From an uncultured Candidatus Saccharibacteria bacterium (lineage in GTDB: Bacteria > Patescibacteriota > Minisyncoccia > UBA6257 > 2-01-FULL-56-20): a DNA stretch of 64,000 bases. Every line of letters starts with the position of its first letter. The first letter of the stretch is position 1. The DNA is taken from contig CAZAFA010000001.1 of the NCBI GenBank assembly GCA_964484655.1, forward strand, positions 97,518 to 161,517, read 5' to 3'. Below, in pieces: positions 9,094-31,000 of this stretch. Under the pieces are notes generated by a model. It did not search any database. It was not told the origin of the DNA and saw only the letters and a list, made by a program, of their open reading frames with translations. The position numbers and the translations under genes are program-made.

Positions 9094-9228
9094 GTTCCGA
9101 TGCGCGATGCGCGCGCGTGTATGACGCGATCATGCGCATCGCATGATCATGAAAAAAAGTTTTCGCGCATGTCGCGATGCAGTTATCCACACGTTCGCGC
9201 GCATGCCGTTTACTACAATTAGATACAA

Positions 9229-9243: not shown

Positions 9244-9297
9244 TCGTCGGATGCAATCCATAGTCGACAACCGACGTCACACACCACACTTGCTTCC

Positions 9298-9483
9298 ATG
9301 GCCAAGAAAGCAGCACGCAAGTCCACGAAGAAGACCGTGAAGCGGGCTTCGAAGAAGACTGTGAAGAAGGCGGCGAAGAAGACCGTGAAGAAGGCGGCGA
9401 AGAAGACCACGAAGAAGGCTTCCCGCAAGACCGCTAAGAAGTCCACGAAGAAGGCTTCGAAGAAGACGGCCCGCCGTCGCTAA
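9298..9483 (+). CDS. Histone H1-like Lys/Ala-rich DNA-binding protein (tandem KKTVKKAAK repeats)
   Basis: 61-aa protein made of KK(T/A)VKKA(A/S)KK repeats, encoded by tandem ~30-nt nucleotide repeats. It resembles bacterial H1-like/HupB C-terminal tails. Confidence 0.6.
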   Translation: MAKKAARKSTKKTVKRASKKTVKKAAKKTVKKAAKKTTKKASRKTAKKSTKKASKKTARRR

Positions 9484-9503
9484 GTACGACATTACCCACT
9501 TAC

Positions 9504-9531
9504 GCAAAGCCCCCGATTCCGGGGGCTTTGC
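9504..9531 (+). terminator. GC-rich terminator hairpin
   Basis: GCAAAGCCCCCG-attc-CGGGGGCTTTGC, a 12-bp stem 20 nt after the stop. No U-tract. Confidence 0.5.
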
Positions 9532-9570
9532 GCGTCTGCGGCCGGCCGACCGACCTGCTAGGATAGGGGT

Positions 9571-9903
9571 ATGAAGACCTCAATCCACTACGAGAACGTC
9601 GATCGCTCGCCGGCCCTGGAGGACCTCATACAGGGGAAGATGGCATCCGTGGCGACCATCCTCGCGGCCTACGACGCGGACGACGCCGTAGCCTGCAACG
9701 TGACGGTTGAGCGCGCCACCGGCCACCACCACGGCGACGTGTACGCCGTCCGCGCGACCGTCGAGGTGAACGGTACGGTCCTGACCGCCCATGCGACCGG
9801 CGACGACCCGTACAAGCTCGCCGACGAGGTGCGCGACACGCTCCACGGCGCCGTCCAGCGCTTCAAGGAGCAGGACGTTGCGCGCCGCCACGCCGAGGGC
9901 TAA
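9571..9903 (+). CDS. hpf: Ribosome hibernation promoting factor / RaiA family (short form)
   Basis: 110 aa. N-terminal ...IHYENVDRSPALEDLIQGKM and C-terminal DDPYKLADEVRDTLHGAVQRFKE match the HPF/YfiA beta-alpha-beta fold family. TGcTAGGAT sits 6 nt upstream of the ATG. Confidence 0.65.
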   Translation: MKTSIHYENVDRSPALEDLIQGKMASVATILAAYDADDAVACNVTVERATGHHHGDVYAVRATVEVNGTVLTAHATGDDPYKLADEVRDTLHGAVQRFKEQDVARRHAEG

Positions 9904-9926
9904 GCTCACGCGGCACATCTCCTCAC

Positions 9927-12506
9927 GTGATACGGATCATCCGCAATATTTTCGACCGCAAGGCGCTCGCCGGCTACCGGAAGCGCCTGGTGCCGATCGC
10001 AGACCTCGAGCCCGAGCTCCAGGAGCTCGCCGACGCGGCGATCACCGAGCGCAGCCTCGCGCTCCGCGACAAGCTCCGGTCCGGGGCCCTGTCCGTCGAC
10101 GAGGCCATGCCGGAAGCGTTCGCGCTCGCCCGCGAGGCGGCCCGGCGCACGCTCGGGCAGCGCCCGTACGACGTCCAGCTCATCGGCGGCATCGTGCTCT
10201 ATGAAGGAGGGATCGCCGAGATGGGAACCGGAGAGGGAAAGACCCTCGCGGGCGTGGCCCCGGCCTACCTGCATGCCCTGACCGGGCGCGGCGTCCACAT
10301 GGTCACGGTCAACGAGTACCTGGCCCGCCGCGACGCCGTCTGGATGGGCCAGATCTACCGCCTGCTGGGCCTCTCGGTCGCGTGCCTCGTCCCCGAGGCG
10401 GCCTTCGTCTACGACGCGGACTTCAAGGGCGAGGAGAACGCCGAAGAGGACCGCGACGAGACGGGCGGCTTCAAGGTGCACCAGGAGTTCCTGCGCCCGG
10501 TCTCGCGCCGCGAGGCCTACCTCGCCGACGTGACCTACGGCACGAACCACGAGTTCGGCTTCGACCATCTCCGGGACAACCTCCAGTACCGCGCCGAGAT
10601 GCAGGTCCAGCGCCCGCACTACTTCGCGATCATCGACGAGGCTGACAGCATCCTCATCGACGAGGCGCGCACCCCGATGATCATCTCCGCGCCGGACCGG
10701 GAGAGCAGCGAGATGTATCGCACCTTCGCGAGCATCGCGCGCCGCCTGCAGCGCGACACGCACTACGAGGTCGACGAGAAGTACAAGGCGGTCACCATGA
10801 TGCCGGAGGGCATCGAGGAGGTGGAGCGCATCCTCGGCATCGCGAACCTCTACGCGCCGGAGAACGTCCGCCTCGTCCGCTACCTCGACGAGGCGCTCAA
10901 GGCGGAGTCCCTCTTCATCAAGGATCGCGAGTACGTCGTCCGCGAGGGCGAGATCCTCATCGTGGACGAGTTCACGGGCCGCATCCTCGCCGGGCGCCGC
11001 TACAGCGGGGGACTGCACCAGGCCATCGAGGCCAAGGAGGGCGTGAAGGTGAAGGAGGAGAGCCGCACGTACGCGAAGATCTCCGTCCAGAACTACTTCC
11101 GCCTCTACGAGCGGATCTCCGGCATGACCGGCACCGCCGAGACCTCCGCCGAGGAATTCCACAAGGTGTACGGCCTGCCCGTCGTCTCCGTGCCGCCGCA
11201 CCGCCCGGTGGTGCGCCAGGACCTGCCGGACCTCGTCTACAAGAGCCGCGAGATCAAGTACCGCGCCATCGCGGCGGACGTGAAGGAGCGGCACGAGAAG
11301 GGCCAGCCGGTCCTCATCGGCACGACCTCGATCGAGAAGAACGAGGAGCTCTCCGCGTATCTCGATCGCGCCGGCATCCCGCACAGCCTCCTCAACGCCA
11401 AGAACAACGAGAAGGAGGGTGCGACGATCGCGCAGGCCGGCCGCAAGGGCGCCGTCACCGTCGCCACGAACATGGCCGGCCGCGGCGTCGACATCATCCT
11501 GGGCGGCAACCCGTCCACGAAGGAGGAGGGGGACGAGGTCCGCGCGCTCGGCGGCCTGCATGTGATCGGCACGGAGCGGCACGACTCGCGCCGCGTGGAC
11601 AACCAGCTCCGCGGCCGCGCCGGACGCCAGGGCGACCCGGGATCCTCGCAGTTCTTCCTCTCCCTCGACGACGACCTCATGCGCATCTTCGGCGGGGACC
11701 GCATCAAGGGCCTCATGGAGCGGTTCAACCTCCCCGAGGACGAGCCGATCCAGATGGCCATGGTCACGCGCGCCATCGCGGAGGCCCAGTCGAAGGTCGA
11801 GGGGTACCACTTCGACAGCCGCAAGCGCGTCATGGAGTACGACGACGTGCTCAACAAGCAGCGCGCGGCCGTCTACGCGAAGCGCCAGCAGCTGGTCGAC
11901 TCGCGCACCGGCGAGGACGTCGCGCGCGAGGTCGGCGAGGCGGCCCGCGCCTTCCTCGACCGGGTCCTCGGCAAGGACGGCGTGGTGCCGGACGGCAGCG
12001 AGCCGCTTGCCGAGCTCCAGAAGCTCTTCGCCGAGGCGGGCATCACCGACGCGGAGCATCCATGGCCGGAAGGGCACGTCGACGTGGCGCACCTGCAGGA
12101 CCTCATCGACCACCGCAGCGCCCACGCCGCGACCGATCCGCAGACCCTCGGCCGCCTGCTCGGCATCCTCGACCAGCTCTGGATGACCCACCTCGAGGAT
12201 CTCGAGGACCTGGATCAGAACGTGCGCCTGCGCGGCTACGCCCAGCGCGACCCGCTCGTCGAGTTCCGGCGCGAGGCTTCCGAGTACTACGAGCGCATGT
12301 GGAGCAACTACGAGGAGTGGGTCTTCATGAACGCCATCCGCCTCGCGCAGCCCGGCGATCCCGCCGCTGCGTTCGAGCTCCCGCAGCAGAACGCGCCGAA
12401 GGCCGCCGAGCTCGACGACCCGAAGTTCCAGAACGTCGGCCGCAACGATCCCTGTCCGTGCGGCAGCGGCAAGAAGTTCAAGAAGTGCCATGGCGCAGGA
12501 CTCTAG
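9927..12506 (+). CDS. secA: Preprotein translocase ATPase SecA
   Basis: 859 aa with DEAD-like motor motifs, Walker A MGTGEGKTL, and a C-terminal zinc finger CPCGSGKKFKKCHG. GTG start. Confidence 0.95.
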   Translation: MIRIIRNIFDRKALAGYRKRLVPIADLEPELQELADAAITERSLALRDKLRSGALSVDEAMPEAFALAREAARRTLGQRPYDVQLIGGIVLYEGGIAEMGTGEGKTLAGVAPAYLHALTGRGVHMVTVNEYLARRDAVWMGQIYRLLGLSVACLVPEAAFVYDADFKGEENAEEDRDETGGFKVHQEFLRPVSRREAYLADVTYGTNHEFGFDHLRDNLQYRAEMQVQRPHYFAIIDEADSILIDEARTPMIISAPDRESSEMYRTFASIARRLQRDTHYEVDEKYKAVTMMPEGIEEVERILGIANLYAPENVRLVRYLDEALKAESLFIKDREYVVREGEILIVDEFTGRILAGRRYSGGLHQAIEAKEGVKVKEESRTYAKISVQNYFRLYERISGMTGTAETSAEEFHKVYGLPVVSVPPHRPVVRQDLPDLVYKSREIKYRAIAADVKERHEKGQPVLIGTTSIEKNEELSAYLDRAGIPHSLLNAKNNEKEGATIAQAGRKGAVTVATNMAGRGVDIILGGNPSTKEEGDEVRALGGLHVIGTERHDSRRVDNQLRGRAGRQGDPGSSQFFLSLDDDLMRIFGGDRIKGLMERFNLPEDEPIQMAMVTRAIAEAQSKVEGYHFDSRKRVMEYDDVLNKQRAAVYAKRQQLVDSRTGEDVAREVGEAARAFLDRVLGKDGVVPDGSEPLAELQKLFAEAGITDAEHPWPEGHVDVAHLQDLIDHRSAHAATDPQTLGRLLGILDQLWMTHLEDLEDLDQNVRLRGYAQRDPLVEFRREASEYYERMWSNYEEWVFMNAIRLAQPGDPAAAFELPQQNAPKAAELDDPKFQNVGRNDPCPCGSGKKFKKCHGAGL

Positions 12507-14028: not shown

Positions 14029-14700
14029 ATGCGCATCCTTCTGGTAGAGGACGAGCCGAGCATCGCGGCGTACCTTGCCAAGCGCCTCGAGGAACAGAGC
14101 TTCGTCGTCGACCGCGCTGAGGACGGCGCAGAGGGCTCCTTCCTCGGGCGCACGAACGAGTACGATCTCGTCATCCTCGACAACCTGCTCCCCAAGAAGC
14201 TCGGCATAGACGTGGTGCGCGACCTGCGCAGCCGCGGCAAGACGATGCCGATCCTCATGCTGTCGGTCCGGGGCGACGTCGAGACGAAGGTCGAGCTCCT
14301 CAACGCAGGCGCCGACGATTACCTCGCCAAGCCCTTCTCCTTCGACGAGCTGCTGGCGCGCATCGGCGCGCTGCTCAGGCGGCCGCCGCACGTGACCAAG
14401 CCCGTGCTCAAGGTCGCCGACCTCATGCTCAACGAGGCGACGCACGAGGTCCGCCGCGGCGGGAAGGAGATAAGCCTGACGCGCAAGGAGTTCTCGCTGC
14501 TGCGCTACCTGATGCGCAACGCCTCGGTCGTGCTCTCGCGCGGCCTGCTGCTCGAGCACGTCTGGAATATCGACATGGACCCGTTCTCGAACACGGTGGA
14601 AGCGCACATCGCGAGCCTGCGCCGCAAGGTGGACGCGCCGTTCGGCAAGAAGCTCATCAAGACGGTCCTCGGCAGGGGATACAAGATATCCGCGCGTTGA
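14029..14700 (+). CDS. OmpR/PhoB-family response regulator (REC plus winged-helix)
   Basis: MRILLVEDEP...DLVILD...K, then a C-terminal trans_reg_C with RRGGKEISLTRKEFSLLRYL and GRGYKI. An alternative GTG start at 14023 has better spacing to the GAGGAG at 14011-14016. Confidence 0.85.
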   Translation: MRILLVEDEPSIAAYLAKRLEEQSFVVDRAEDGAEGSFLGRTNEYDLVILDNLLPKKLGIDVVRDLRSRGKTMPILMLSVRGDVETKVELLNAGADDYLAKPFSFDELLARIGALLRRPPHVTKPVLKVADLMLNEATHEVRRGGKEISLTRKEFSLLRYLMRNASVVLSRGLLLEHVWNIDMDPFSNTVEAHIASLRRKVDAPFGKKLIKTVLGRGYKISAR

Positions 14701-15224
14701 AGTCCCTACCACAGCTACTAGCACCGCGAGAACGGACGTTCTGCTCGATCGACTTCGGCAACGTCAATCGCTGGTTCGTCCGCGACGGACTTGAGATTGA
14801 CTTAGCCGGTCTCGCCGCCTGCGCTTCATCGCTCGCTGCTCGCACGAATTTCTATTACGGGCATGATGCGCAGAAGCCGGGATCGCTGGCATTCCTTAGC
14901 CAGACGCGCTTGCATTTCGGACGTTCTCGCGTCATCACGAAGCCGATCCAGAAGATAGCCACTGCCTCCGGCCAGCCGATTCTCAAGGCGAACTTCGATG
15001 TCGAGATAGCTGTCGATGCGATGAGGCTCATGGAGCATTATGATGCTTTCGTACTCTTATCCGGCGATGCCGATTTCGCCTACCTGCTCAAGAGGCTGCG
15101 CGAGGCAGGAAAGAAGACGATTCTGATCAGGAAGGGATACATCGCGTATGCCTTGCGTGATGCCGCAGATCTCGTCCTTGATGCTGCTGACTTCGCAGAA
15201 TCCATAACTAGACCGCCCCGCTGA
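14697..15224 (+). CDS. NYN-domain protein (LabA-like predicted RNase)
   Basis: DVEIAVDAMRL...DAFVLLSGDADFAYLLKRLREAGKKT matches the NYN/PIN-like acidic core. Confidence 0.7.
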   Translation: MKSLPQLLAPRERTFCSIDFGNVNRWFVRDGLEIDLAGLAACASSLAARTNFYYGHDAQKPGSLAFLSQTRLHFGRSRVITKPIQKIATASGQPILKANFDVEIAVDAMRLMEHYDAFVLLSGDADFAYLLKRLREAGKKTILIRKGYIAYALRDAADLVLDAADFAESITRPPR

Positions 15225-19242: not shown

Positions 19243-19539
19243 TCATTCCAACCAGTGCCCGGCAGGCACCGCGTTAATCTCCGCAGCCTGGGCTGCCGCT
19301 TTGGGCTTCAGCAGCCGGATGCCGGTCTTCTCCTTGATGTCAGACCAGAGATAGACAATCGGCATCACAGGGCCGGTTCCCAGCACGAAGATCGTCGCGA
19401 AAACGAATAATCCGAAATCTCTCTGATAGAGCATGTAGAAGAGGCTTTCATGCCTCGAGTTCGCATCCATCAGAAACCAGATGTCGCGCGCGAGAAAGAT
19501 CGCCCACGACGCTTTCCATATAAACCAGACTAGTTCCAC
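19243..19539 (-). CDS. Small membrane protein, PLD-nuclease N-terminal (PLDc_N)-like
   Basis: 98 aa with two TM helices and LGTGPVMPIVYLWSDI, resembling the PLDc_N/cardiolipin-synthase N-terminal family. GC content is lower than the surroundings. Confidence 0.4.
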   Translation of the reverse strand: MELVWFIWKASWAIFLARDIWFLMDANSRHESLFYMLYQRDFGLFVFATIFVLGTGPVMPIVYLWSDIKEKTGIRLLKPKAAAQAAEINAVPAGHWLE

Positions 19540-19621
19540 AGAATTATTTCTCCCTATTACGTATTATTTGCCGTAGCTGATACAACTTATAATACATTAT
19601 CGGCTACCAGTCAATCATAGA

Positions 19622-19648
19622 TTAGCAATCTTGACCGGGGACTGCTAA
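19622..19648 (+). promoter_or_regulatory. CIRCE-like operator (HrcA binding site) upstream of hrcA
   Basis: TTAGCAaTC-N9-GAcTGCTAA versus consensus TTAGCACTC-N9-GAGTGCTAA (2 mismatches), 22 nt upstream of the hrcA ATG in an AT-rich divergent intergenic region. Confidence 0.65.
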
Positions 19649-19669
19649 CCGCGCACAATTACCTCCGCC

Positions 19670-20356
19670 ATGCGGAACCGCGCCGCTGAAATCCTGGAAG
19701 CAACCGTCCGCGAGTTCATCCTCACGGGCCTGCCGGTGAGCTCGTCGCATCTCTACGAGCGCTACGATTTCGGGATCAAGCCGGCGAGCATCCGCATCGA
19801 GCTAACGGACCTTACCGACGAGGGATTCCTCGAGCAGCCGCACCACGCGGCGGGACACGTGCCCAGCGACCGCGGGTACGAGTACTACGCGCTCCGCGCG
19901 CTCGAGGACCCGGCGCCGTCCCGGGGCTTCCGCGGGATGGCCGACGCCGTCCGCGCGAGCGCCTACGACGACCTCGCCGACCTCCTCGCGGAGCAGGTGG
20001 GCGCGGTCGGGGTCGTCGCCGACCTCGACCGGGGCTACGCGGTGACCCGCGGCCTCCCGGCGCTCGTCGAGCGCCTCGACTGGGAGAGCCGCGAGGAGCT
20101 CGCGGGCATCCTCCGCGACATCGAGGGCATCGACGAGCGCATCGCGCGGTTCGGCGCCAAGATCGGCACCGACCCGCGGCCGTACATCGGCTCCCGGAGC
20201 CCGTTCGGCGGCCACGGGGCGCTCGCCGCGATCGCGGCGCGCTACTCGCTGCACGGGCGGCCGGTCGCCATCATCGCGGTCGGGCCCAAACGAATGGACT
20301 ACGACCGGGCCGCGACCCTCTTCGCCGCGCTCCAGGACCTTTCCGAAGCTGACTAA
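19670..20356 (+). CDS. hrcA: Heat-inducible transcription repressor HrcA (short, 228 aa)
   Basis: N-terminal wHTH and the HrcA signature EQPHHAAGHVPSDRGYEYY, followed by grpE-dnaK-dnaJ. Shorter than the usual ~340 aa. Confidence 0.75.
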   Translation: MRNRAAEILEATVREFILTGLPVSSSHLYERYDFGIKPASIRIELTDLTDEGFLEQPHHAAGHVPSDRGYEYYALRALEDPAPSRGFRGMADAVRASAYDDLADLLAEQVGAVGVVADLDRGYAVTRGLPALVERLDWESREELAGILRDIEGIDERIARFGAKIGTDPRPYIGSRSPFGGHGALAAIAARYSLHGRPVAIIAVGPKRMDYDRAATLFAALQDLSEAD

Positions 20357-20372
20357 CCACTATTCACACACC

Positions 20373-20891
20373 ATGGACGAGAACACGATCAACCCCGACA
20401 GCGAGCTCCCGGTCGCGCCCGGCGCGCAGGAGCTCGAGGACATCCGCACCGACCTCGAGCGCGAGCGCGACGAGTACAAGGACGGCTGGATGCGCGCGAA
20501 GGCGGACCTCATCAACCACAAGAAGCAGGAAGCGGAGCGCGTGAGCGCTGCGATCGCCACCGGGCTGCAGTCCGTCGTCAGCGACGTCCTCCTCGTCCTC
20601 GACAGCTTCGACGTGGCCATCGCCGCCATCCAGGACGAGACGGCGGCGCAGGGCCTCCGCATGATCCGCTCTCAGCTCCTCGACGTGCTCAAGCGGTACG
20701 GCGTCGCGCAGGTCCCGGCCGCCGAGCTCGTCGGCAAGGAGTTCGACCCCGCCGTCGCCGAGGCCATCGGCACGCAGCCGAGCGACCAGCCCGAGGGGAC
20801 CGTCGTGACGGTCGTCCAGGAGGGCTACCGCATGGGGGACAAGGTCCTCCGCGCCGCCCGCGTCCTCGTCGCCGCACCCGCCCAGTCGTAA
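20373..20891 (+). CDS. grpE: Nucleotide exchange factor GrpE
   Basis: Coiled-coil N-terminus and a C-terminal beta-sheet domain with GYRMGDKVLRAARV. Confidence 0.9.
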   Translation: MDENTINPDSELPVAPGAQELEDIRTDLERERDEYKDGWMRAKADLINHKKQEAERVSAAIATGLQSVVSDVLLVLDSFDVAIAAIQDETAAQGLRMIRSQLLDVLKRYGVAQVPAAELVGKEFDPAVAEAIGTQPSDQPEGTVVTVVQEGYRMGDKVLRAARVLVAAPAQS

Positions 20892-20906
20892 CCACCACCC
20901 ATCACC

Positions 20907-22799
20907 ATGCCTAAGATCATCGGAATCGACCTCGGTACCACCAACTCCGCCGTCGCCGTCACGGAGGGCGGCGAGCCGCGCATCCTCGAGAATCACGAGG
21001 GCAACCGCACCACGCCGTCCATCGTCGCCGTCAACAAGGCGGGAGAGCGCCTCGTCGGCCTCCTCGCCAAGCGCCAGGCGATCACGAACCCGGCGAACAC
21101 CATCTACTCGGTGAAGCGCCTCATCGGCCGCTCCTTCGACGACCCCGAGGTGCAGCGGGACATCACGCTGCTCCCGTACGAGGTGCGGAAGGCCAGCAGC
21201 GGCGGCGTCGAGGTGAAGCTCGGCGACGCGTGGCACACCCCCGAGGCGATCTCCTCGTTCGTCCTCGCAAAACTCAAGGCGGACGCGGAAGCCAAGCTCG
21301 GCGACACGGTCACCGAGGCGGTCATCACGGTGCCGGCCTACTTCGACGACGCGCAGCGCCAGGCGACCAAGAACGCGGGCGAGATCGCGGGCCTGAAGGT
21401 GCGCCGCATCATCAACGAGCCGACCGCGGCCGCGCTCGCGTACGGGCTAAACAAGAACAAGCACGAGAAGGTGGTGGTGTACGACTTCGGCGGCGGCACG
21501 TTCGACGTGTCGGTGCTCGAGATCGGCGACGACACGGTCGAGGTGGTCGCGACCGGCGGCGACACGCACCTGGGCGGCGACGACTTCGACAACGCGCTTC
21601 AGAACCATCTCCTCGCCGAGTACAAGAAGCAGGAGGGCATCGACCTCGCCAAGGACCCGCTCGCGCTCCAGCGCATCAAGGAGGCGGCAGAGCGCGCCAA
21701 GCACGAGCTCTCGACCGCGACCGAGACGGAGATCAACATCCCGTACATCACCAGCGACGCGAACGGGCCGAAGCACTTCCTCCTCAAGCTGACCCGCGCC
21801 ACGCTCGAGGAGCTCACGCGCGAGCTCGTGGAGCGGTCCGTGGCGATCACCAAGGAGGTGGTCACCGCGCCCGCGCCGAAGGGCGCCGGCTTCCAGATCG
21901 CGGACATCGCGGAGGTCATCCTCGTCGGCGGCCAGACGCGCATGCCGGCCATCCAGGAGGCGGTGAAGGGCCTCTTCGGCAAGGAGCCGCATCGCGGCAT
22001 CAACCCGGACGAGGTGGTCGCCTCGGGCGCCGCGGTCCAGGCGGGCATCCTCCAGGGCGACGTGAAGGACATCCTCCTGCTCGACGTCACCCCGCTGACG
22101 CTCTCCATCGAGACGCTCGGCGGCGTCGCGACCCCGATGATCGAGAAGAACACCACGGTCCCGACCAACAAGACCCAAACCTTCTCGACGGCCGCGGACA
22201 ACCAGCCGAGCGTCGAGGTGCACATCCTCCAGGGCGAGCGGCCGATGGCTTCCGACAACAAGACGCTCGCGCGCTTCATCCTGGACGGCATCCCGCCGGC
22301 CCCGCGCGGCGTGCCGCAGATCGAGGTCAGCTTCGACATCGACGCCAACGGCATCCTGAACGTCTCCGCCAAGGACAAGGCCTCCGGCAAGAGCCAGTCC
22401 GTCCGCATCGAGGCGAGCACGGCGCTCTCCAAGGAGGAGATCGAAAAGCTCCGGAACGACGCGGCCGCGCACGCCGAGGAGGACCGCAAGCGCAAGGAGC
22501 TCGTCGAGACGCGGAACAACGCCGAGAGCCTCGCGTACACCGCGGAGAAGGCTCTCGCCGACGCCGGCGACAAGGTCCCCGCGGACCTCAAGGCCGGGGT
22601 GGAGGAGAAGGTGAAGGCGGTGCGCGACGCGCTCGCCGGCGAGGACGCGGACGCTATCAAGTCGGCGTCCGACGCGCTAAGCTCTGAGATGCAGAAGATC
22701 GGCGAGCAGCTCTACAAGCAGCCCGAGACGCCGCACGACAGCAGTGCTGATACTCAACCCCGAGAACCTGGAGAAGACGCAGGCCCCGCTGCGTCCTGA
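20907..22799 (+). CDS. dnaK: Chaperone DnaK (Hsp70)
   Basis: [29 protein letters not shown] and a C-terminal lid. 630 aa. Confidence 0.95.
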
Positions 22800-23763
22800 G
22801 GCGACGCGGCCCGCGCGGTACGCCTCGGTGCTCCGCGTATCCCTCGCGATCATCACGACCGCGGCGGCGTTCCTGTCGGGCTACGCGGTGACGCAGTACT
22901 TCGCGCTCGCCTGGCCGCTCTGGTACGCCGCGGCGGCGATCGGCGGGTTCGTCTACCTGGCCGCGCTCGTCGCGATCACGGTCGACGGGTTGCGCTGGCA
23001 CATCCCGCTCGCGGTCATCTGGGGCGCCTGCTTCGCGCTCGGCCTCCCGTGGCGCGACGGCGCCGAGGCGTTCGCGATGGCGGGCATCGTCGCGGCCGGG
23101 TCCGTCCTGGCGTACATGACGTACGCCTCGGGGGCGAGCTCCTTCGCGACGCTCCATACCTTCACCGTGTCCCGCCGCTATGCGTCGGCGCTCGCGAGCG
23201 GCATCGTGCTCGCGCTCATCGTCCTCTACGGCGCCGCGCTCAGTCGCGGAAACCCGATCCTTCCCGAGAATGCGTTCGCCGGCGTCGCCGACCACGCGGC
23301 GCGCCTCGTGCCGACGTTCCTCCCTACGGTCCCGCAGAACGGCTCGTCGACTTTGTCGGTCAACGACCTCGCGCGCGCTTCCGTCACGGCGCAGCTCAAG
23401 GACGACCCGCGCTTCAAGGCGCTCGACCCTGCCGAGCAGCAGGAGGTGCTCGAGAACGCCGTGGAGCAGGCCGCGAAGTCCTTCACCAAGCAGCTCGGCG
23501 CGGCGAGCTCCTCGCCGGACGCGTCGGTCGGGTCGGTCACGCAGACGGCGCTCGCGAGCATGCTCAACCGCTTCCGCGACCAGTTCGGCTGGTACTTCAT
23601 CGCCGCCTGGCTCCTCGGCGCCTTCTTCGTCGCGCGTTCGGCCGCGTTCGTGATCACGCTCGCTATCGCCGGCGTCGTCTGGCTCACCGTCCTCGCGGCG
23701 CTCTCGCTGGGCATCCTCCGCGTCGATACGATCCCGGCGTACCGCGAGCGCCTCATACTCTGA
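22744..23763 (+). CDS. Hypothetical polytopic membrane protein between dnaK and dnaJ
   Basis: The 339-aa ORF overlaps the dnaK 3' end by 55 nt. An in-frame GTG at 22828 would remove the overlap. About 8 TM helices, no recognisable domain. Confidence 0.5.
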
Positions 23764-23770
23764 CCCCGTC

Positions 23771-24826
23771 ATGGCGAAGGACTACTACCAGATCCTGGGC
23801 GTTTCGCGCGACGCTTCCCCGGAGGAGATCAAGAAGGCGTACCGCAAGGCCGCGCACCAGCACCACCCTGACAAGCAGGGCGGCGACGAGGCGCGCTTCA
23901 AGGAGGTCAACGAGGCGTACCAGGTGCTCGGGAACGCCGAGAAGCGCGCCCGCTACGACCGTACCGGCTCCGCGGATGGCTTCCCGGGCGGCGGAGCTGG
24001 ATTCGGCGGCTTCGGCGCGGAGGGCTTCGAGGTGAACTTCGAGGACCTCGGGGACCTGTTCTCGAGCGTCTTCTCCGGCGGCTTCGGCGGGGGATCGCCG
24101 CGCCGCCGCGATCGCGGCGACGATCTTCACGTGGAGCTCCGCATCTCGCTCGAGGAAGCCTTCTCCGGCGGCGACCACGGCTTCCGCGTCCCGGCGCAGG
24201 TGAAGTGCGATACGTGCGCGGGCTCGGGCGCCGCGGAGGGCAGCAAGCTGGTCACCTGCGCGACCTGCCACGGCAAGGGGCAGGTGGTGCAGACGCGCCG
24301 CGTGCTCTTCGGGCAGTTTCAGCAGGCGATCCCGTGTCCGGACTGCGAGGGAAGCGGGCAGAAGCCGGAGAAGCCGTGCCCGGCATGCCACGGAGCAGGA
24401 CGCGTGAAGGGGACGCGTGACGTGAAGGTCCACATCGACCCGGGCGTGCAGGACGGGCAGGTCATTGCTGTTCCCGACATGGGCGACGCGGGCCAGCGCG
24501 GCCTGCCGGCCGGATCGCTGGGCGTCCTGGTGCGTATCGCGCGGCACAAGACCTTCGTCCGCGAGGGCGACGAGCTCCTCGCCGACGTGCCGGTCTCGCC
24601 GCTCGAGCTCCTCGCGCACGAGCCGATCCAGGTGCCCGTCATCGACGGCGGCACGGAGCCGGTCTCGATCCCGGCGGGCACGGACCTGTCCCAGCTGTTC
24701 CGCGTGAAGGGGAAGGGGATGCCGCGTTTCCGCGGCAGGGGACGCGGGGACCTGCTCGTGCGGTTCCACGTCATCACGACCAAGAGGCCTGGGAAGCGGG
24801 AGGTAGAGAAGCTGTTCGAGTCCTAG
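23771..24826 (+). CDS. dnaJ: Co-chaperone DnaJ
   Basis: J domain with HPD, a G/F-rich region and four CxxCxGxG zinc-finger repeats. Confidence 0.9.
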
Positions 24827-24890
24827 TCTGCCAAGTTCCTCGCGGAAGTAGGCAAGGAAATCAGCACGAAGTTGTGGGCTGTAGTGATAC

Positions 24891-24917
24891 ATAAAGACCG
24901 TGCATTACGGCACGGTC
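24891..24917 (-). terminator. Rho-independent terminator (minus-strand orientation) at the left edge of the low-GC block
   Basis: GACCGTGC-attacg-GCACGGTC followed on the minus strand by TTTAT. It sits just downstream of the minus-strand ORF ending at 24944. Confidence 0.5.
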
Positions 24918-24943
24918 ATCATCGGGATTACGTACCCCGGTCT

Positions 24944-25324
24944 TTACCCGGAAGTTTCCGATAAAGGCTTGGAGGGGAGATAGGCAGGGTTAATCTGGAC
25001 GAAGCCCGTCTTCCCGGTACCAATCATCAAAAAATCTGTGATAGCTCCCTTGGTTTGTTTCATAACCTTGCTTTGAACATCTTCAGCGGCACGAACGTAT
25101 GTGCGTGCACTAGCCTCAGAATGATCGTCAGCTGCATCGTCAGAAAGCTCTGAATAATAAAAGCGTTCGTCAGGATTGCGTAGCATCCGCTCTATGAGAT
25201 AAAAGCCCTCGGTTTTTGCTTGCCGCAAGTTAAGACTGATCGGGAATGAGCCTATATGTAGGGTGCCTGTATCTGAATCTAGGCTGAGCACGCGCTCGTC
25301 CTTATCTTCGGGTTTAGTAAGCCA
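24944..25324 (-). pseudogene. C-terminal part of a frameshifted hypothetical gene; continues the reading frame of 25314..25820
   Basis: This frame is protein-like only downstream of ~25325 (...VWLTKPEDKDERVLSLDSDTGTLHIGSF...MLRNPDERFYYSELSDD...). Upstream it is Cys/Ser/Arg-rich junk. The in-phase partner ORF stops at 25314, so a 1-nt frameshift near 25315-25330 would fuse them into a ~300-aa protein. Low GC. Confidence 0.35.
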
Positions 25325-25820
25325 GACCCTGCACGCCTCGATTACGAGGGGGGTGCGTGAAACGCAGCCAATTCTTGTAGCGATCCTTGCGGAGCAAGAA
25401 GTGGTTATCAGGCATCGGCTTATCGTCAATTGCAAATTCAGTGAGGAGCATCGCAAAGCGCGTCCCAGTTTCAGGCCTACTGCCATCCTCAATTTTCCTG
25501 AGCAAAGTTTCGACTGCACCGTATACCTGCCATAGCTCGTCATAGACAGGCCAGAAGTGAAGCTCGTGAAGGGTAGTGAGCATAGCTTCGCGGTCTAGAT
25601 CCGGGGCAGTCAGAACCTTTTTCTTAATCTCTTGCCACTTCGCAAACTCTTCGTACAGAAAATGGCCTTCGAGTCCGTGGGTGTTAGCCACGGTTTTTAC
25701 ATAGCCGTGAATCTCCCTGAAGAGTTGCAAATCCGGCTCCATAGTCATCATGAGTTGGTAGCGGCGTTCGAGGTCGGCAATAACCTGATCTGCCGTAGGG
25801 GGAGTCTCTGATTGGGCCAT
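25314..25820 (-). CDS. Hypothetical protein (N-terminal part of the putative frameshifted gene), low-GC block
   Basis: ORF with a protein-like C-terminus (...HFLLRKDRYKNWLRFTHPPRNRGVQGLAY). The start is set at MAQSETPP (25820). Upstream in-frame ATGs up to 25970 would overlap the divergent gene. No known domain. Confidence 0.4.
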   Translation of the reverse strand: MAQSETPPTADQVIADLERRYQLMMTMEPDLQLFREIHGYVKTVANTHGLEGHFLYEEFAKWQEIKKKVLTAPDLDREAMLTTLHELHFWPVYDELWQVYGAVETLLRKIEDGSRPETGTRFAMLLTEFAIDDKPMPDNHFLLRKDRYKNWLRFTHPPRNRGVQGLAY

Positions 25821-25929
25821 AAATCTGGTGGCTTTCAAGGTGCCTATTACTGCACTAAACTGCAAGCTATAGCAGTGGCTATCCAGAAGCCCTTCCATTA
25901 GGCTTTTGGCAAAATCCCATAGAACACCC

Positions 25930-26889
25930 ATGCGCCTAGGAGAAATCAAAAAGATACTAGACAGAGTCACTGATGGCTCGGTTATTGCCGTAGCGCATGA
26001 ACCCCTTTATGGAGATCAAGCTCAGCGTGTTGGCAACTACGGGGATGTAATCGCCGCTCTCGAGGTGCTATCTGAGCAGGACTGGAGCGAGCTCGATAAG
26101 GCAACCCTGAATAGCCTGCTGGAAAAACATCCTTCTACAGAATCCGCCATTCTCACCCAGGAAGAGTTTAGTCAGCTAAATGCGCTGGTGAGTGCAGTAA
26201 ATCAAAAGCTGCCCGTTTTCTATTCCATACTTAAAAATATGGTTGACTCTCAGGAAGAGCAGACCATTAACATTAAGCTACCAGCGGGTATTGATTCGAT
26301 TGCTAAGCTAACGAAATTCAATAACAACATCGAGAATGTACTGAAGCGTTTCAATGTTGACGGTCAGTTTGATTTTAAACAGTTCGATAAAGGATCCGAT
26401 TGGTATGTCATCGTTGCTACCAGTTATCTTTCTTACAGGTTCTTACTTGCGGGCCTGGCAACGGCGCAGAAATACCTAGAAATGAGAAAGGCCAGTTTCG
26501 AATCAAAAACTGCTGAACTAGAATACCGGGCTGCAGTTGATAAACCTGAAGTCGAACCAAAGGAAGTAAAAGCCTTCGTGGAACGCAAGCTTAAACTTTT
26601 CGTGGAGAACGAAGTCCAAGAAGCAATACAGCAACTTGGTACAGGATCAAATACTGAAGGTGAGCTTCGCGTGAAGTTGATACAGGCAACCACAGCTCTT
26701 ATTAAGGAGCTTGATGATGGAGCGGAATTCCACCTATCACTTAATCCTCCAGCTTATGCAGAGGAAAATGGTGGTCAGCTGAGGATTGACTACTCGAAAA
26801 TGCGGCCCCTTATCGAAAAGAAGGAAGAGGACAGCAAGCAACTGAACGCTCCCGCAGAGGCAGATTCCGTGGAAGATCAAACCGAATAA
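25930..26889 (+). CDS. Hypothetical protein (320 aa, acidic, coiled-coil-rich, one hydrophobic segment), low-GC block
   Basis: ATG at 25930; the track's 25906 is a TTG. No recognisable family. One central hydrophobic segment WYVIVATSYLSYRFLLAGLATA. AT-rich codon usage unlike the host genes. Confidence 0.5.
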   Translation: MRLGEIKKILDRVTDGSVIAVAHEPLYGDQAQRVGNYGDVIAALEVLSEQDWSELDKATLNSLLEKHPSTESAILTQEEFSQLNALVSAVNQKLPVFYSILKNMVDSQEEQTINIKLPAGIDSIAKLTKFNNNIENVLKRFNVDGQFDFKQFDKGSDWYVIVATSYLSYRFLLAGLATAQKYLEMRKASFESKTAELEYRAAVDKPEVEPKEVKAFVERKLKLFVENEVQEAIQQLGTGSNTEGELRVKLIQATTALIKELDDGAEFHLSLNPPAYAEENGGQLRIDYSKMRPLIEKKEEDSKQLNAPAEADSVEDQTE

Positions 26890-26903
26890 GGGTTGTTAAA
26901 TTA

Positions 26904-27371
26904 ATGGAAATCATTTTTCTCAAAGATCGGGATTGGCGGGTAAATGATGGTCGCCTTAGTCTGATTAGAGAATTTAAGCCCTTTCTAGGAAGTAAGGTAG
27001 AAAATGGGATGGCTATCACGGTAGATTCTTCTATTCCTTATGCCTCGGTAGAATTTGTAAGTCATAACCTTCCTAACCAGGCAACGGGTTTTATCACTCA
27101 CAAAGAGGACTTTATAAATCTATGGAAGGTTTTTAATGACAGGGGGATAGCCTCGAATGAAGAAGTAATTTTTTACTGGTCTACAAAGCATTACAAATCA
27201 AAAATAGTAGGGTTTCTTTCAAAAATGCTTCCCAAAATGGCTATTTACGTAGTGCCAAGCGGCACATATCAAACTGTCAGTGATATGGATTTACCGAAAG
27301 TAGATACTGCAAATGTCATGTATTACGCACTAGCGGCGAAGGATGCTTGGATCCCGGAAATAATGACTTAA
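26904..27371 (+). CDS. Hypothetical protein (155 aa), low-GC block
   Basis: Follows the previous gene after 14 nt. No recognisable domain. Low GC. Confidence 0.45.
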   Translation: MEIIFLKDRDWRVNDGRLSLIREFKPFLGSKVENGMAITVDSSIPYASVEFVSHNLPNQATGFITHKEDFINLWKVFNDRGIASNEEVIFYWSTKHYKSKIVGFLSKMLPKMAIYVVPSGTYQTVSDMDLPKVDTANVMYYALAAKDAWIPEIMT

Positions 27372-27390
27372 ATTCGGCCATAACAATATT

Positions 27391-27418
27391 ATCGTTCGAA
27401 CATCGTCCACGGCCCCCA
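27391..27418 (+). repeat. 28-bp direct repeat, copy 1
   Basis: ATCGTTCGAACATCGTCCACGGCCCCCA, identical at 27/28 positions to 27632-27659. Contains the palindrome GTTCGAAC. Confidence 0.6.
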
Positions 27419-27631
27419 ATTAGTATGATTTAGATATGAAGAGACACTGGCTTGAGCATATTGAAGGATCATTCTCGCTATCGCCCTACCTGCGGGTTTG
27501 ATAGCCTTATTACTTGATCCGTCAGCGACAAATGGCCTCCTATTTCTTATCCTCGCAGTAGCGTGGAAGCACGCAAATGGCGCCCTATAAAGGCGCGGCT
27601 ATTTGGTATCGGTTAAATTTTCAGACACAAA

Positions 27632-27659
27632 ATCGTTCGAACATCGTCCACGACCCCCA
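27632..27659 (+). repeat. 28-bp direct repeat, copy 2
   Basis: ATCGTTCGAACATCGTCCACGACCCCCA, 241 bp downstream of copy 1 in a noncoding stretch. Confidence 0.6.
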
Positions 27660-27672
27660 GTGGATATTTGAA

Positions 27673-27700
27673 AAGGCACCTGTTAAGTAACAAGTGCCTT
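27673..27700 (-). terminator. Rho-independent terminator for the minus-strand small membrane protein gene
   Basis: The stem AAGGCAC...GTGCCTT has an internal TGTTA/TAACA extension. On the minus strand it is followed by TTTTCAAATAT. Confidence 0.5.
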
Positions 27701-27724
27701 CACCTCATCAAGAGTCTGGTCAAT

Positions 27725-27955
27725 CTAATTTTCGTCGAGATAACCGCGCAGCTTCTCTACGGTTAAAGAATCGCCTCGGATAAATTCCCTCAAGCTGATT
27801 CCACAAAATCCAATAGTTAAGCTCGAGATGCCGATGATTCCAAAAAAGATGACACTGACCCAAACGCCGCCGTGAATGGTCTGCGGGTGCGTGGACATCT
27901 CATACCAACCCATAACTGTTGCAATAGCGATTAACACTAGCCCTAATAGTTTCAT
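27725..27955 (-). CDS. Small two-TM membrane protein (76 aa), low-GC block
   Basis: Start chosen at MKLLGLVLIAIATVMGW... because GGAGGT lies 8 nt upstream. The track ORF extends to 28114 but has no RBS there. Confidence 0.5.
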   Translation of the reverse strand: MKLLGLVLIAIATVMGWYEMSTHPQTIHGGVWVSVIFFGIIGISSLTIGFCGISLREFIRGDSLTVEKLRGYLDEN

Positions 27956-28072
27956 TGTGAATACCTCCGCTGAACATACTAAGTATATTGACGAATTATT
28001 CAATAGTACGCATAAGGGTTCCGATAACGTCCCACTGCGCCAGCAGCCATTTTTTAGCGATACAATTCGGTC

Positions 28073-28657
28073 ATGAAGAGCCTCAAGGACTTTGATCCGA
28101 ACGAGGTGGCACATCTCGATCTAGAGATGTGGAAGGCATACTACAGCCATAGGTTCGTCCGCCTGTTTTTCTTACTTGTTAGACTCCTGCGTAAGCAATT
28201 CGGGCTGGGCCTGTTTACTGCCATCCGTGCCGCATCTTTCGCCGCCGCGGCAGCAACCGATTTCCGTCGTAACAAAGGGAAGGAAGACAAGCAGCGTGTG
28301 TATGAGAAAGTTCTACGCTTCACGCAAATTGTTTCTGCTAACGCGCCAGAAGAGTTCAATGCAGAACAAGCTGCTACAACCGAAGTTGAGTGGTGGTTTG
28401 TCGATCGTTACCCCGAGAACTTCCTAGAAGGGGAACGTGAGAGAGGGCTAGCACGTGCAATGAGTGCTATCTACGGAGTAAACCCGGAGGCCTTAGCGGA
28501 TTATGCCAAGTATCGTGCTCAGGCCATGGTGCTCCAGGATGAAGCTGAAGAGACAGGCAAGGAGGCAGATTGGGAGAGGATGGGGATCCTGCTCAGGGAT
28601 TCCTATCGGGCATTATTCACCGCTCTTCACGAGGAGGATCGTTCGAAGTTCGTCTAG
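28073..28657 (+). CDS. Hypothetical protein (194 aa), intermediate GC
   Basis: No recognisable domain. An N-terminal amphipathic/hydrophobic segment and a C-terminal acidic region. The gene is followed by a T-tract. Confidence 0.45.
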   Translation: MKSLKDFDPNEVAHLDLEMWKAYYSHRFVRLFFLLVRLLRKQFGLGLFTAIRAASFAAAAATDFRRNKGKEDKQRVYEKVLRFTQIVSANAPEEFNAEQAATTEVEWWFVDRYPENFLEGERERGLARAMSAIYGVNPEALADYAKYRAQAMVLQDEAEETGKEADWERMGILLRDSYRALFTALHEEDRSKFV

Positions 28658-28710
28658 CTTGGCCAGCGCGGCGAGCGTTCAGGCTTTTTTCTTGATGCTA
28701 TTCTAGAGAC

Positions 28711-29091
28711 ATGACCACCATCTTCCTCGCCCAGCTCTGGGGGCCGATCTTACTCGCTGTCGCGCTCGGGATCTTCTTCAGCGCCTCGTACTACCGCCGC
28801 ATCTACCGCGAGCTCGAGAAGGACTCGCTCGCCGTCCTTCTCTTCGGCATGACCGCCACCGCGGCCGGCATCGCGCACGTCCTGTTCCATAACTCCTGGG
28901 CTTCTACGCCGGAGATTGTCGTATCCCTCCTCGGCTGGGGACTCCTCCTCAAGGGCATGCTCTTCATCATCGCACCCGGGTTCGTGGACCGCGCCGGGGA
29001 CCGATGGGCGAAGCTCAAGCTAATCCCGTTCGCAGGAGCTCTCACGCTACTGGTCGGCTTGTATCTGACCTGGTTCGCGTACCTCGCGTAG
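28711..29091 (+). CDS. Hypothetical membrane protein (126 aa, 4 TM), host-like high GC
   Basis: Four predicted TM helices. Codon usage returns to the high-GC pattern of the flanking chromosome. Confidence 0.5.
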   Translation: MTTIFLAQLWGPILLAVALGIFFSASYYRRIYRELEKDSLAVLLFGMTATAAGIAHVLFHNSWASTPEIVVSLLGWGLLLKGMLFIIAPGFVDRAGDRWAKLKLIPFAGALTLLVGLYLTWFAYLA

Positions 29092-29155
29092 AGAAGCAGT
29101 CGGCAGAGGTATCTGGTCACAATGGCAACGCACCCGTACGGGTGCGTTGTGCTAG

Positions 29156-29569
29156 CTAGTCAGACTCGAGCGGCTCCCAGTAGATCGACTCCACGACCTC
29201 TGCGGGAGCGTCGGGAGGCCACCACTCCTTGCGTATCCGTGCGACGACCGCGTCGCGGTCGGTCTCGGTGCCGAAGAGCAGGGCGAACGCCCGCTGGCGG
29301 TCGCGCGTGACCCAGGGATTCCTGCTGCGGGTTATCCATGCCTCGACCGAGTTCTCCTCCAGGAAGGCGGCGACCTCGTGCGGCGTGTGCTCGCCGCTGA
29401 GCTTGTGCCAGGCGCGATGCTCGCGTTGCGGCTTGTACAGCAGGTTGCCTCCCTCCATGTCTGGATTATGGAAGTAGCCGGCCTCGAGGAGGCGCGACTG
29501 GGGCAGGGGATGATGCGCGGTGATGCGCATGAGGTCCCGCTCCTGGCGCCTCTTCTTCTTGCGTCTCAT
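29156..29569 (-). CDS. HNH endonuclease-domain protein (137 aa)
   Basis: Starts at MRRKKKRRQERDL with GAGGT 6 nt upstream. It carries HH-x14-N-x8-N-x8-H-x3-H (HHPLPQ...FHNPD...GGNLL...HRAWH), a typical HNH core. The track ORF is longer but its extension is Arg-rich junk. Confidence 0.6.
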   Translation of the reverse strand: MRRKKKRRQERDLMRITAHHPLPQSRLLEAGYFHNPDMEGGNLLYKPQREHRAWHKLSGEHTPHEVAAFLEENSVEAWITRSRNPWVTRDRQRAFALLFGTETDRDAVVARIRKEWWPPDAPAEVVESIYWEPLESD

Positions 29570-29745
29570 TGCGCGACCTCGTTCCCGATGCCGAGCAGCC
29601 GCTTCGCGGACATCCAGAACCCGCCGGCTATGGCGTGGACGACGAACGCGATCAGCCAGAACGGCAGGACGACGTGCGACGTCCAAGGAGTCTCCGTCTC
29701 GCTCGCGAGCGCTCTCTCCATGCAGGTGTTACATAAGATGCTCAT
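29566..29745 (-). CDS. Small hypothetical protein (59 aa) with CxxC and a hydrophobic helix, translationally coupled to the HNH gene
   Basis: ATG at 29745 with AAGAGGAGG 6 nt upstream. Its TGA overlaps the HNH ATG (ATGA). At 59 aa it is below the ORF-track cutoff. A TTGACA-17-TAAAAC promoter lies on the minus strand at 29791-29819. Confidence 0.4.
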   Translation of the reverse strand: MSILCNTCMERALASETETPWTSHVVLPFWLIAFVVHAIAGGFWMSAKRLLGIGNEVAQ

Positions 29746-29831
29746 ACAGCACCTCCTCTTGATAGTATTTTGGAATCGTTGCCGAGCGCAGTTTTATCTA
29801 TTATCCTCCTAATTGTCAATATCCGGTGCCT

Positions 29832-30260
29832 ATGACCATCTTCGAGCGCGCCAAGAAGTTCGGCCTCCCGGCGGGCGAGTACGCGGTCTTCGGCAGCGCG
29901 CTGCTCGGCGCCTGGGGGATCCGCCCCGCGAAGGATCTCGACCTGATCGTCAAGCCCGATCTCTTCGCGCGGCTGCGCGCTGACGGGTGGCGGGAGTGGG
30001 TGACGCAGATGGGGCACCCGATCCTCACGCGCGACGACGCGGACGCGACGACGTACCAGGAGCCCGATCCGCGCATCGGCTACAACCCGGACCGCGCGCG
30101 GCTCATCAAGGAGGCGGTCCTGATCGAGGGCGTGCCGTTCGTGCGCGTCGAGGAGGTGATCGCGTGCAAGCGCGACTACGACCGTCCGAAGGACCGCGAC
30201 GACATCGCCGCGATCGCGCGCTATCTCGCGGAGCGGGGAGGGGATGCGATCTACGGCTAG
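29832..30260 (+). CDS. Minimal nucleotidyltransferase (MNT)-like protein
   Basis: YAVFGSALLGAWGIRPAKDLDLIV matches the GS-x9-13-DhD nucleotidyltransferase core. 143 aa; an alternative GTG start is at 29826. Confidence 0.5.
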   Translation: MTIFERAKKFGLPAGEYAVFGSALLGAWGIRPAKDLDLIVKPDLFARLRADGWREWVTQMGHPILTRDDADATTYQEPDPRIGYNPDRARLIKEAVLIEGVPFVRVEEVIACKRDYDRPKDRDDIAAIARYLAERGGDAIYG

Positions 30261-30261
30261 C

Positions 30262-30843
30262 ATGCGGGCTGCCTCCTTCCTCCGCCGCAACGCCTGGGTC
30301 ATAACCGGCACCGCCGCTGCCCTGGTCGCGCTCGCGGTCCTCGAGCTGCACGGCGGCCGCCTGCCGTGGGGCCCGGACGGGCGGTTCGGCTGGTGGGACG
30401 GGAACATCCACGGCAGCGAGAACTCGCAGCGCGTCGCCGACGCGTACTCGTTCACGCACGTCCTGCACGGCATCCTCATCTACGCGGGACTCTGGCTCTT
30501 CGCGCGCCGGGTCCCGGCCCGGTACCGCTTCCTCGCCGCGGTGCTCATCGAGGCGGGATGGGAGCTCCTCGAGAACTCGCCGTTCGTCATCGAGCGGTAC
30601 CGGGCGGGAACGGTCTCGCAGGGCTACGTGGGCGACAGCGTCCTCAACTCCGTCTCCGACGTGCTCATGATGGCGCTCGGCTTCCTCGTGGCGCACGCCT
30701 CGCCCGCGCGGCTGACCGTCGCGCTCGCTATCGCGATGGAGGTCGGACTGCTGCTCTGGGTGGGGGACAACCTCACGATCAACGTCGTCATGCTCGTCCA
30801 TCCGATCCCCGCGATCCGGGAGTGGCAGGCGGCCCATTTCTGA
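30262..30843 (+). CDS. DUF2585/UPF0314-family membrane protein
   Basis: SENSQRVADAYSFTHVLHGILIYAGLW and ...ENSPFVIERYR... resemble the conserved core of UPF0314 proteins. 4-5 TM helices. An alternative ATG lies at 30244. Confidence 0.5.
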   Translation: MRAASFLRRNAWVITGTAAALVALAVLELHGGRLPWGPDGRFGWWDGNIHGSENSQRVADAYSFTHVLHGILIYAGLWLFARRVPARYRFLAAVLIEAGWELLENSPFVIERYRAGTVSQGYVGDSVLNSVSDVLMMALGFLVAHASPARLTVALAIAMEVGLLLWVGDNLTINVVMLVHPIPAIREWQAAHF

Positions 30844-30917
30844 GACGGACGCGGGCGCGCATCACGCCGCAACCTTGCCACCGCGTCCACTGGTCGGTAT
30901 GCTTTGCCGCGACCTGA

Positions 30918-30990
30918 GCCCCTATAGCTCAGTTGGTAGAGCAGCTCCCTTTTAAGGAGACGGTCCTAGGTTCGAGCCCTAGTGGGGGCA
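30918..30990 (+). tRNA. tRNA-Lys (anticodon UUU), CCA not encoded
   Basis: Cloverleaf: acceptor GCCCCTA/TGGGGGC, D-arm GCTC-AGTTGGTA-GAGC, anticodon loop CTTTTAA (TTT), T-arm CTAGG-TTCGAGC-CCTAG, discriminator A. 73 nt. Confidence 0.9.
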
Positions 30991-31000
30991 CTCATTTTTC

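Follow-up and report, generated by a model that had tools for sequence, protein, structure and literature searches.

CRISPR is absent from most Patescibacteria, which are believed to depend on restriction-modification (R-M) systems. Their genomes are streamlined, and useless DNA should be short-lived in them. Time and again, genes located within type I R-M operons have turned out to serve in defence, as exemplified by PrrC, TgvAB and the outcome of an embedding screen. The anticodon nuclease PrrC, which combines an ABC-type ATPase N-domain with a C-terminal nuclease domain, is encoded within an hsd operon. TgvAB is embedded in a type I R-M operon and is a proven defence system (PMC11411939), and a guilt-by-embedding screen yielded the PDC candidates embedded in R-M operons (Payne et al., bioRxiv 10.1101/2024.01.29.577857). 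Genomic islands are common in Patescibacteria; most transfers detected are between members of the phylum, and the transferred genes are enriched in defence genes (PMC12455944). Here we analyse a block of 3.8 kb with a low guanine-plus-cytosine (GC) content in a 64-kb stretch of DNA (the window) from an uncultured Candidatus Saccharibacteria bacterium (GenBank assembly GCA_964484655.1, contig CAZAFA010000001.1, positions 97,518 to 161,517). The block carries five genes, which we designate A to E. It is probably a recent, integrase-less mosaic island from a lower-GC Patescibacterial source, with an orphan, R-M-associated candidate defence gene (B), a broken regulator gene (A) and unrelated cargo (D and E).

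Composition, junctions and gene content of the island

The island is located directly 3' of the hrcA-grpE-dnaK-orf339-dnaJ operon (19670–24826), with the stop codon of dnaJ as its left border. All of the open reading frames (ORFs) listed in a first-pass annotation, which was made from the letters of the window, were present: a pair on the minus strand, and those of genes B, C (155 residues), D (76 residues) and E (194 residues). The island and its genes are as follows.

24827–28700, no strand: low-GC island, from the dnaJ stop codon (24824–26) to the start of a host-like gene for a 126-residue membrane protein (28711)
24944–25820, minus strand: gene A, split into ORFs 25314–25820 and 24944–25543; predicted C-terminal winged helix of the OmpR/PhoB type and an uncharacterised N-terminal domain
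25930–26889, plus strand: gene B, 319 residues, acidic (pI 4.8); candidate R-M-associated or defence protein
26904–27371, plus strand: gene C, 155 residues, 14 nt 3' of B; nearly an orphan
27725–27955, minus strand: gene D, 76 residues with two transmembrane (TM)-like segments; Shine-Dalgarno sequence GGAGGT 7 nt before the ATG; gene also called in assembly L081
28073–28657, plus strand: gene E, 194 residues; small conserved family of unknown function

The first-pass annotation had reported a sharp drop in GC content from the end of dnaJ to about 28.66 kb, and had taken the block for recently acquired DNA. The drop was confirmed by calculation: the GC content was 0.469 over 24830–28660 and 0.676 in the rest of the window. 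With 400-bp windows, values of 0.69–0.71 were found through dnaJ (0.70–0.71 for 24000–24800), followed by 0.49 at 24800, 0.38–0.52 up to about 28400 and at least 0.61 from 28600 onwards. With 500-bp windows, the mean was 0.462 for the island and 0.677 outside (standard deviation 0.041), which corresponds to a z-score of −5.3; none of the 500-bp windows outside the island had a GC content below 0.51. The contrast was larger at third codon positions (GC3). The GC3 of the island ORFs was 0.37–0.59, compared to 0.95, 0.94 and 0.91 for the host genes dnaK, orf339 and dnaJ, and 0.94 and 0.93 for the H144 and DUF2585 genes to the right of the island. The GC3 of the 126-residue membrane-protein gene at 28711 was 0.87, and the right border was therefore placed at about 28660–28700. 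Inside the island the GC content differed from gene to gene, ranging from 0.39 (C) to 0.52 (A and E).

Both junctions were found in Logan assemblies, which come from two sequencing runs (samples). One assembly (L081), aligned to the window, is 100% identical to positions 23894–30953 and spans both junctions. An assembly from the second sample (L082), also aligned, is 100% identical to positions 24470–27882 and spans the left junction, and another one from that sample (L122) spans the right junction, with E next to host-side genes.

Homologues of B, C and E lie in loci with a GC content of 0.26–0.55, and those of B and E belong to Patescibacteria with genomes of much lower GC content. The contrast in composition and GC3, the junctions in independent assemblies and the lower-GC genomes of the homologues are all in line with the proposed acquisition; that the block is horizontally acquired foreign DNA is well supported. 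The five proteins gave no useful match in Pfam, NCBIfam, PHROGs or PADLOC, in agreement with the earlier remark that none of the ORFs belongs to a recognisable family.

The best matches of the host DnaJ were all from Patescibacteria, with none above 48% identity among one-genome-per-species representatives, and the order dnaK-orf339-dnaJ is conserved in this group. The host is therefore a Patescibacterium of unusually high GC content, with no closely related sequenced genome in these collections. Among the distant relatives (nearest DnaJ 48% identical), different genes follow dnaJ.

The gene B family and its neighbourhoods

B has 86 homologues of 312–334 residues, which are 34–59% identical; the few that are named come from Staskawiczbacteria, Giovannonibacteria and 'Patescibacteria group'. 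The start codon is fixed by the N-terminal sequence MRLGE, which is invariant in 35 homologues. There are 19 invariant columns in the family, including the motif EFHLSLNPP, and B in the window is intact and has kept all 19 of these residues. Three homologues (L099:210–1193, L104:4295–5218 and L105:1691–2641) contain 8–13 in-frame TGA codons, with neither TAA nor TAG, and their contigs are therefore from UGA-sense lineages (table 25 or 4). The B family thus appears, from the homologues retrieved, to be previously unannotated, Patescibacteria-wide and restricted to Patescibacteria.

The AlphaFold2 model of B (predicted local distance difference test, pLDDT, 85; predicted template modelling score, pTM, 0.73) consists of an alpha/beta part at the N terminus, a long helical hairpin, strands at the C terminus and an acidic tail that is disordered. 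B had been described as an acidic coiled-coil protein of 320 residues with one hydrophobic segment. The acidic character holds (319 residues, pI 4.8), but the segment is not hydrophobic enough to be called a TM helix with confidence: the best 19-residue Kyte-Doolittle window scored 1.36, the hydrophobic helix is part of the long helical hairpin of the model, and a membrane protein was rejected. A sequence profile of B gave nothing against the PDB.

About 40 places with a B homologue were fetched, of which roughly 30 are distinct. B was found inside a type I R-M operon in 11 of these roughly 30 distinct loci (L083, L084, L086, L090, L091, L095, L097, L108, L112, L113 and L123). In all 11, hsdS is directly downstream of B or one gene further on, and hsdM is located at most two genes upstream wherever the upstream side is on the contig. 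The embedded B genes are on the same strand as the hsd genes, and stop and start codons often overlap; in L108, for instance, hsdM (6544–8004), B (8001–8984) and hsdS (8981–10090) are arranged with a 4-nt overlap at either side of B. In at least five further distinct loci B is found beside other restriction or conflict-system genes. The neighbours of B are listed below.

L103: Eco57I-type IIG enzyme
L085: DpnI
L111: AbiEii
L083 and L100: NYN
L109: Schlafen/AlbA_2 protein
L107: HTH-ImmA/IrrE protein
L088: PIN-TPR protein
L093: reverse transcriptase
L098 (3760–8993): large serine recombinase, RepSA/REP_ORF2-G2P replication protein and a 158-residue protein

The 158-residue protein in L098 has a PD-(D/E)xK-like motif (read by eye), and a homologue of it also follows B in L100. 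B in L098 looks like a gene carried by an integrative element. The complete genome CP066687.1 (Giovannonibacteria; L125:8001–8990) has a solitary B between rluA/rplS and tsaD, with a GC content of 0.32 and flanks of 0.45–0.51. B was more AT-rich than its surroundings in 19 of the 23 loci of at least 5 kb (a few of which are duplicate places). Given its neighbourhoods, the solitary copy and the AT-rich composition, B is a single-gene unit that has been transferred repeatedly and strongly prefers R-M and conflict-system loci.

The single-gene insertion among housekeeping genes in CP066687.1 resembles the situation after dnaJ in the window.

The broken gene A, genes C to E and the intergenic DNA

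The two ORFs of A, which had been noted as a probable frameshifted pair, were found to be halves of one gene. Three-frame translation located the break.

25349–25354, minus strand: C6 homopolymer (G6 on the plus strand), site of the 1-nt insertion that breaks A

When one C is removed from the C6 run, a protein of 291 residues is obtained. The repaired protein could be aligned collinearly with a family member, P0119 (284 residues), over residues 7 to 280 and across the frameshift point, with 29% identity (E 3e-23). The upstream half corresponds in alignment to the P0119 N-terminal domain. For the downstream half, 97 remote homologues (E ≤ 0.001) were retrieved from 1.84 billion representative proteins; the majority, at 200–320 residues, have the matched domain at their C-terminal end. 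The same C6 run is present in the assemblies from both samples. A programmed +1 frameshift at CCC-C was considered and found no support, and the frameshift was treated as a mutation.

The AlphaFold2 model of the downstream half (pLDDT 81.5) shows a beta-sheet, three helices and a beta-hairpin, which is the OmpR/PhoB arrangement of an N-terminal beta-sheet, three helices and a C-terminal beta-hairpin wing. By sequence, no Pfam match, to Trans_reg_C or otherwise, was obtained for A (E ≤ 0.1) or for ten homologues (E ≤ 0.01); comparison with the PDB by sequence or profile also gave no match. On the model and the alignments, A is a winged-helix regulator gene inactivated by a 1-nt insertion. Of the structure predictions, which had been proposed as a check, that of A gave an OmpR-type fold and that of B no structural relative.

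CadC, ToxR, EmbR and AfsR are members of the OmpR/PhoB family without a receiver domain. A has no receiver domain either; the N-terminal 160 residues have no family match and align only with the N-terminal domain of P0119. A differs from the regulators of this family in that its sequence does not match Trans_reg_C, its N-terminal domain is not a receiver and is of no known family, and the gene is frameshifted.

C is probably co-transcribed with B. Only 2 homologues of C were found among 5.8 billion proteins, and one of these adjoins a gene for an FRG-domain protein. E has 10 homologues with 43–54% identity, which share the motifs MWxAYY, DFRxNKG and WWFVDRYP; E in the window is intact and has every family-invariant residue. 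The homologues of E adjoin NUDIX, acetyltransferase (GNAT), deacetylase and transporter genes, and give no hint of defence. A sequence profile of E gave nothing against the PDB. A Pfam match of E to iHD-CE (E 0.0017; 18 bits, with a cut-off of 27) was too weak to be used.

No relative of A, C, D or E was detected by tblastn in any of the B loci fetched, and the C and E loci, searched by tblastn with the island proteins, contained no other island gene. The genes do not travel together and their GC contents differ, and the island is therefore a mosaic rather than a conserved module.

The features between and beyond the genes are given below.

25821–25929, 109 bp: divergent intergenic region between A and B, with CTGCA-N5-CTGCA direct repeats (10-bp spacing)
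27391–27418, plus strand: 28-bp direct repeat, copy 1
27632–27659, plus strand: 28-bp direct repeat, copy 2, 27/28 identical
28638–28665, plus strand: degenerate repeat, copy 3 (19/28), which shares the 10-mer ATCGTTCGAA and lies across the E stop codon, exactly at the right GC boundary
24896–24917, minus strand: terminator-like hairpin after A, then TTTATGTAT
27672–27705, minus strand: terminator-like hairpin after D, 12-bp stem, then TTTTC; read from the sequence and also present in the minimum-free-energy fold
28665–28695: weak terminator-like site after E
30918–30991: one tRNA gene, tRNA-Lys (UUU), 2.2 kb beyond the island behind host-like genes

The extent of the divergent region is as had been noted, with the start of B fixed by the homologues. 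The CTGCA repeats could be an operator. The pair of 28-bp direct repeats, which had also been noted, is real, with none expected in shuffled sequences. The 10-mer ATCGTTCGAA occurs 3 times in the window, each time on the plus strand and within the island, and copy 3 is the closest non-identical match to the 28-bp repeat anywhere in the window. The D-E pair is enclosed by copies 2 and 3, which may be operator sites or the joints of old recombination events. The 28-bp repeat was absent from the viral contigs searched.

The block had been credited with intrinsic terminators of its own. Good hairpins with T-tracts are indeed found after A and D, but the site after E is weak and the total is not above chance (5 terminator-like sites in the region, 6.6 expected from shuffled sequences). 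Rfam gave nothing over the island at E ≤ 1. The non-coding spacer of 353 bp between C and D folds somewhat better than shuffled sequences on both strands (z of about −2.7); an RNA gene in the spacer was considered, and no RNA family or conserved homologue was found in support.

A few further features of the window were observed outside the island. A second small patch of low GC content (about 0.50) is located just 5' of hrcA (19243–19650), with an ORF for a 98-residue membrane protein on the minus strand (19243–19539). An ORF for an NYN-domain protein (14697–15224) is atypical in composition (GC 0.56, GC3 0.65) and may be another acquired gene; its product is 26% identical to the NYN protein that adjoins B in L083. 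Two other patches have a GC content of 0.55–0.58 (8800–9600 and 50300–51200), the former of which holds a lysine- and alanine-rich ORF of 61 residues with a histone H1-like look (9298–9483). Between dnaK and dnaJ, a gene for a 339-residue membrane protein (22744–23763) occupies the same position in the Patescibacteria loci L001, L003 and L016; the protein has no Pfam or NCBIfam family. To the right of the island, an ORF of 144 residues (29826–30260) shares 17 nt with the beginning of the DUF2585 gene, has a weak PHROG match (phrog_12854, E 7e-4) and contains a G-S...D-x-D motif as in minimal nucleotidyltransferases (read by eye from the sequence).

Origin and possible role of the island

We propose that the DNA was drawn from the gene pool of lower-GC Patescibacteria and became inserted immediately 3' of the hrcA-grpE-dnaK-orf339-dnaJ operon. 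The block would be a patchwork of independently distributed accessory genes and not one functional system. B would persist as an orphan copy, probably co-transcribed with C, and the divergent gene A plausibly once regulated the B-C unit, but is now inactivated by the 1-nt insertion. D and E would be unrelated cargo.

Several observations weigh against this proposal. With regard to the acquisition, no mobility gene (integrase, transposase or recombinase) was found by Pfam, NCBIfam or PHROG scans of the island ORFs, which agrees with the first-pass annotation, and there are no flanking direct or inverted repeats of at least 9 bp or target-site duplications at the borders. The tRNA-Lys gene, 2.2 kb off, is not at the island border. 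Exact-protein look-ups of DnaJ and the 126-residue flanking protein, made in search of an island-free strain, returned the same arrangement only, and no close relative of the host was found. Searches with the island DNA against phage and plasmid collections, by tblastn with B and repaired A against phages and plasmids, and with profiles of B, E and the A domain against IMG/VR viral contigs gave no match or relative.

With regard to B, no hsd gene is present in the window, which makes this copy an orphan. B has no structural relative among solved or viral structures and no recognisable catalytic or nucleotide-binding domain. PADLOC gave no match for B, and among 35 members of the family only scattered weak matches, with at most 2 members per model. 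The solitary B among housekeeping genes in CP066687.1 would also fit a role outside defence, selfish or regulatory, and it is the neighbourhood of B that suggests defence. A was not found beside B in any other locus, so that regulation of B by A stays a conjecture.

By analogy with the genes embedded in type I R-M operons, B may be a stand-alone phage-defence or R-M-accessory protein. We tentatively consider B to represent a new Patescibacteria-specific family, including members from UGA-sense lineages, with a fold that has no detectable relative; it could act as a phage-defence or R-M accessory factor that is normally found between hsdM and hsdS but can spread and be maintained as a single-gene insertion, as in the window.

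In principle, the block could be a decaying piece of a once larger mobile element or R-M locus, which has lost its integrase or hsd genes, is now functionless and is heading for deletion. The pseudogene A and the presence of B without its usual hsd partners would fit such decay, the direct repeats in the C-D spacer and the degenerate third copy at the island edge could be old recombination joints, and in L098 a B homologue is carried together with a serine recombinase and a Rep protein on one element. However, B and E are intact and have kept all family-invariant residues, no fragment of hsdM, hsdS or hsdR was detected in the window at E ≤ 0.01, and B is also alone and intact in the complete Giovannonibacteria genome. 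Given that streamlined Patescibacteria should lose useless DNA soon, we consider a functionless remnant unlikely.

Of the earlier suggestion of a cargo, defence or abortive-infection style module, defence is supported for B by its genomic context, and a module is not supported. In its strongest form, the five genes would be one co-functional defence or abortive-infection module, with B and C as sensor or effector, D as a membrane effector, E as a partner and A as the regulator. Small two-TM proteins are a common type of abortive-infection effector, which D resembles; the compact layout, the divergent promoter region and the separate terminators would fit a unit, and B is found in defence-type neighbourhoods elsewhere. 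Yet A, C, D and E were absent from all B loci fetched and B was absent from the C and E loci. Recurrent defence neighbourhoods were found for homologues of B only (the 11 type I R-M loci plus others); those of E are among NUDIX, GNAT and other miscellaneous genes, and C, nearly an orphan, has too few homologues to judge. The gene-wise GC content of 0.39–0.52, the frameshifted regulator and the lack of a match to any PADLOC model also disagree with a single module, which makes it very improbable.

Hardly any weight can be given to native genes whose low GC content is due to local selection (AT-rich regulatory DNA or special expression needs), with no transfer. Smaller dips in GC content occur elsewhere in the window (19.2–19.7, 8.8–9.6, 14.7–15.2 and 50.3–51.2 kb), but a shift of 35–55 points in GC3 over five consecutive genes on both strands is not explained by expression or amino-acid usage, the homologues come from genomes of low GC content, and the composition of B is foreign to most of its hosts. 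Finally, an assembly or binning chimera, in which low-GC DNA of another organism was wrongly joined to a high-GC contig, would account for the abrupt change in GC content exactly at gene borders, but can be dismissed because independent assemblies from two samples reproduce both junctions (L081 and L082 at 100% identity, L122 for the right junction).

The block is thus probably a recently acquired mosaic island. Small acquired islands are ordinary, and there is little to be gained from this one as such; what makes it useful is that it points to the B family. If B is a defence or R-M accessory factor, the immune systems of the Candidate Phyla Radiation (CPR) would gain a lineage-specific component. 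The window also offers an unusually clean case of transfer from a low-GC donor into a Patescibacterium of 68% GC, and could serve the study of amelioration and DNA uptake.

Compared to the genomic islands described for Patescibacteria/CPR (PMC12455944), the block is similar in that it contains compositionally deviant accessory genes in a streamlined genome, has likely within-phylum donors and is in part linked to defence. It differs in its size of only 3.8 kb, in having no integrase, tRNA border or flanking repeats, and in the GC-rich host, which sharpens the contrast.

The comparison of B with the R-M-embedded defence genes (PrrC, TgvAB and the PDC candidates) is similarly mixed. In B there is no ABC-ATPase, nuclease or GmrSD domain, nor any other that could be recognised, and no PADLOC match, and the copy in the window is itself outside any R-M system. 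Of the characteristics of PrrC, the ATPase and nuclease families were not matched and there was no structural match; the operon position is common only to the homologues of B. In that position the family is like the known systems: the genes are placed in the order hsdM-B-hsdS-hsdR, on the same strand and often with overlapping codons.

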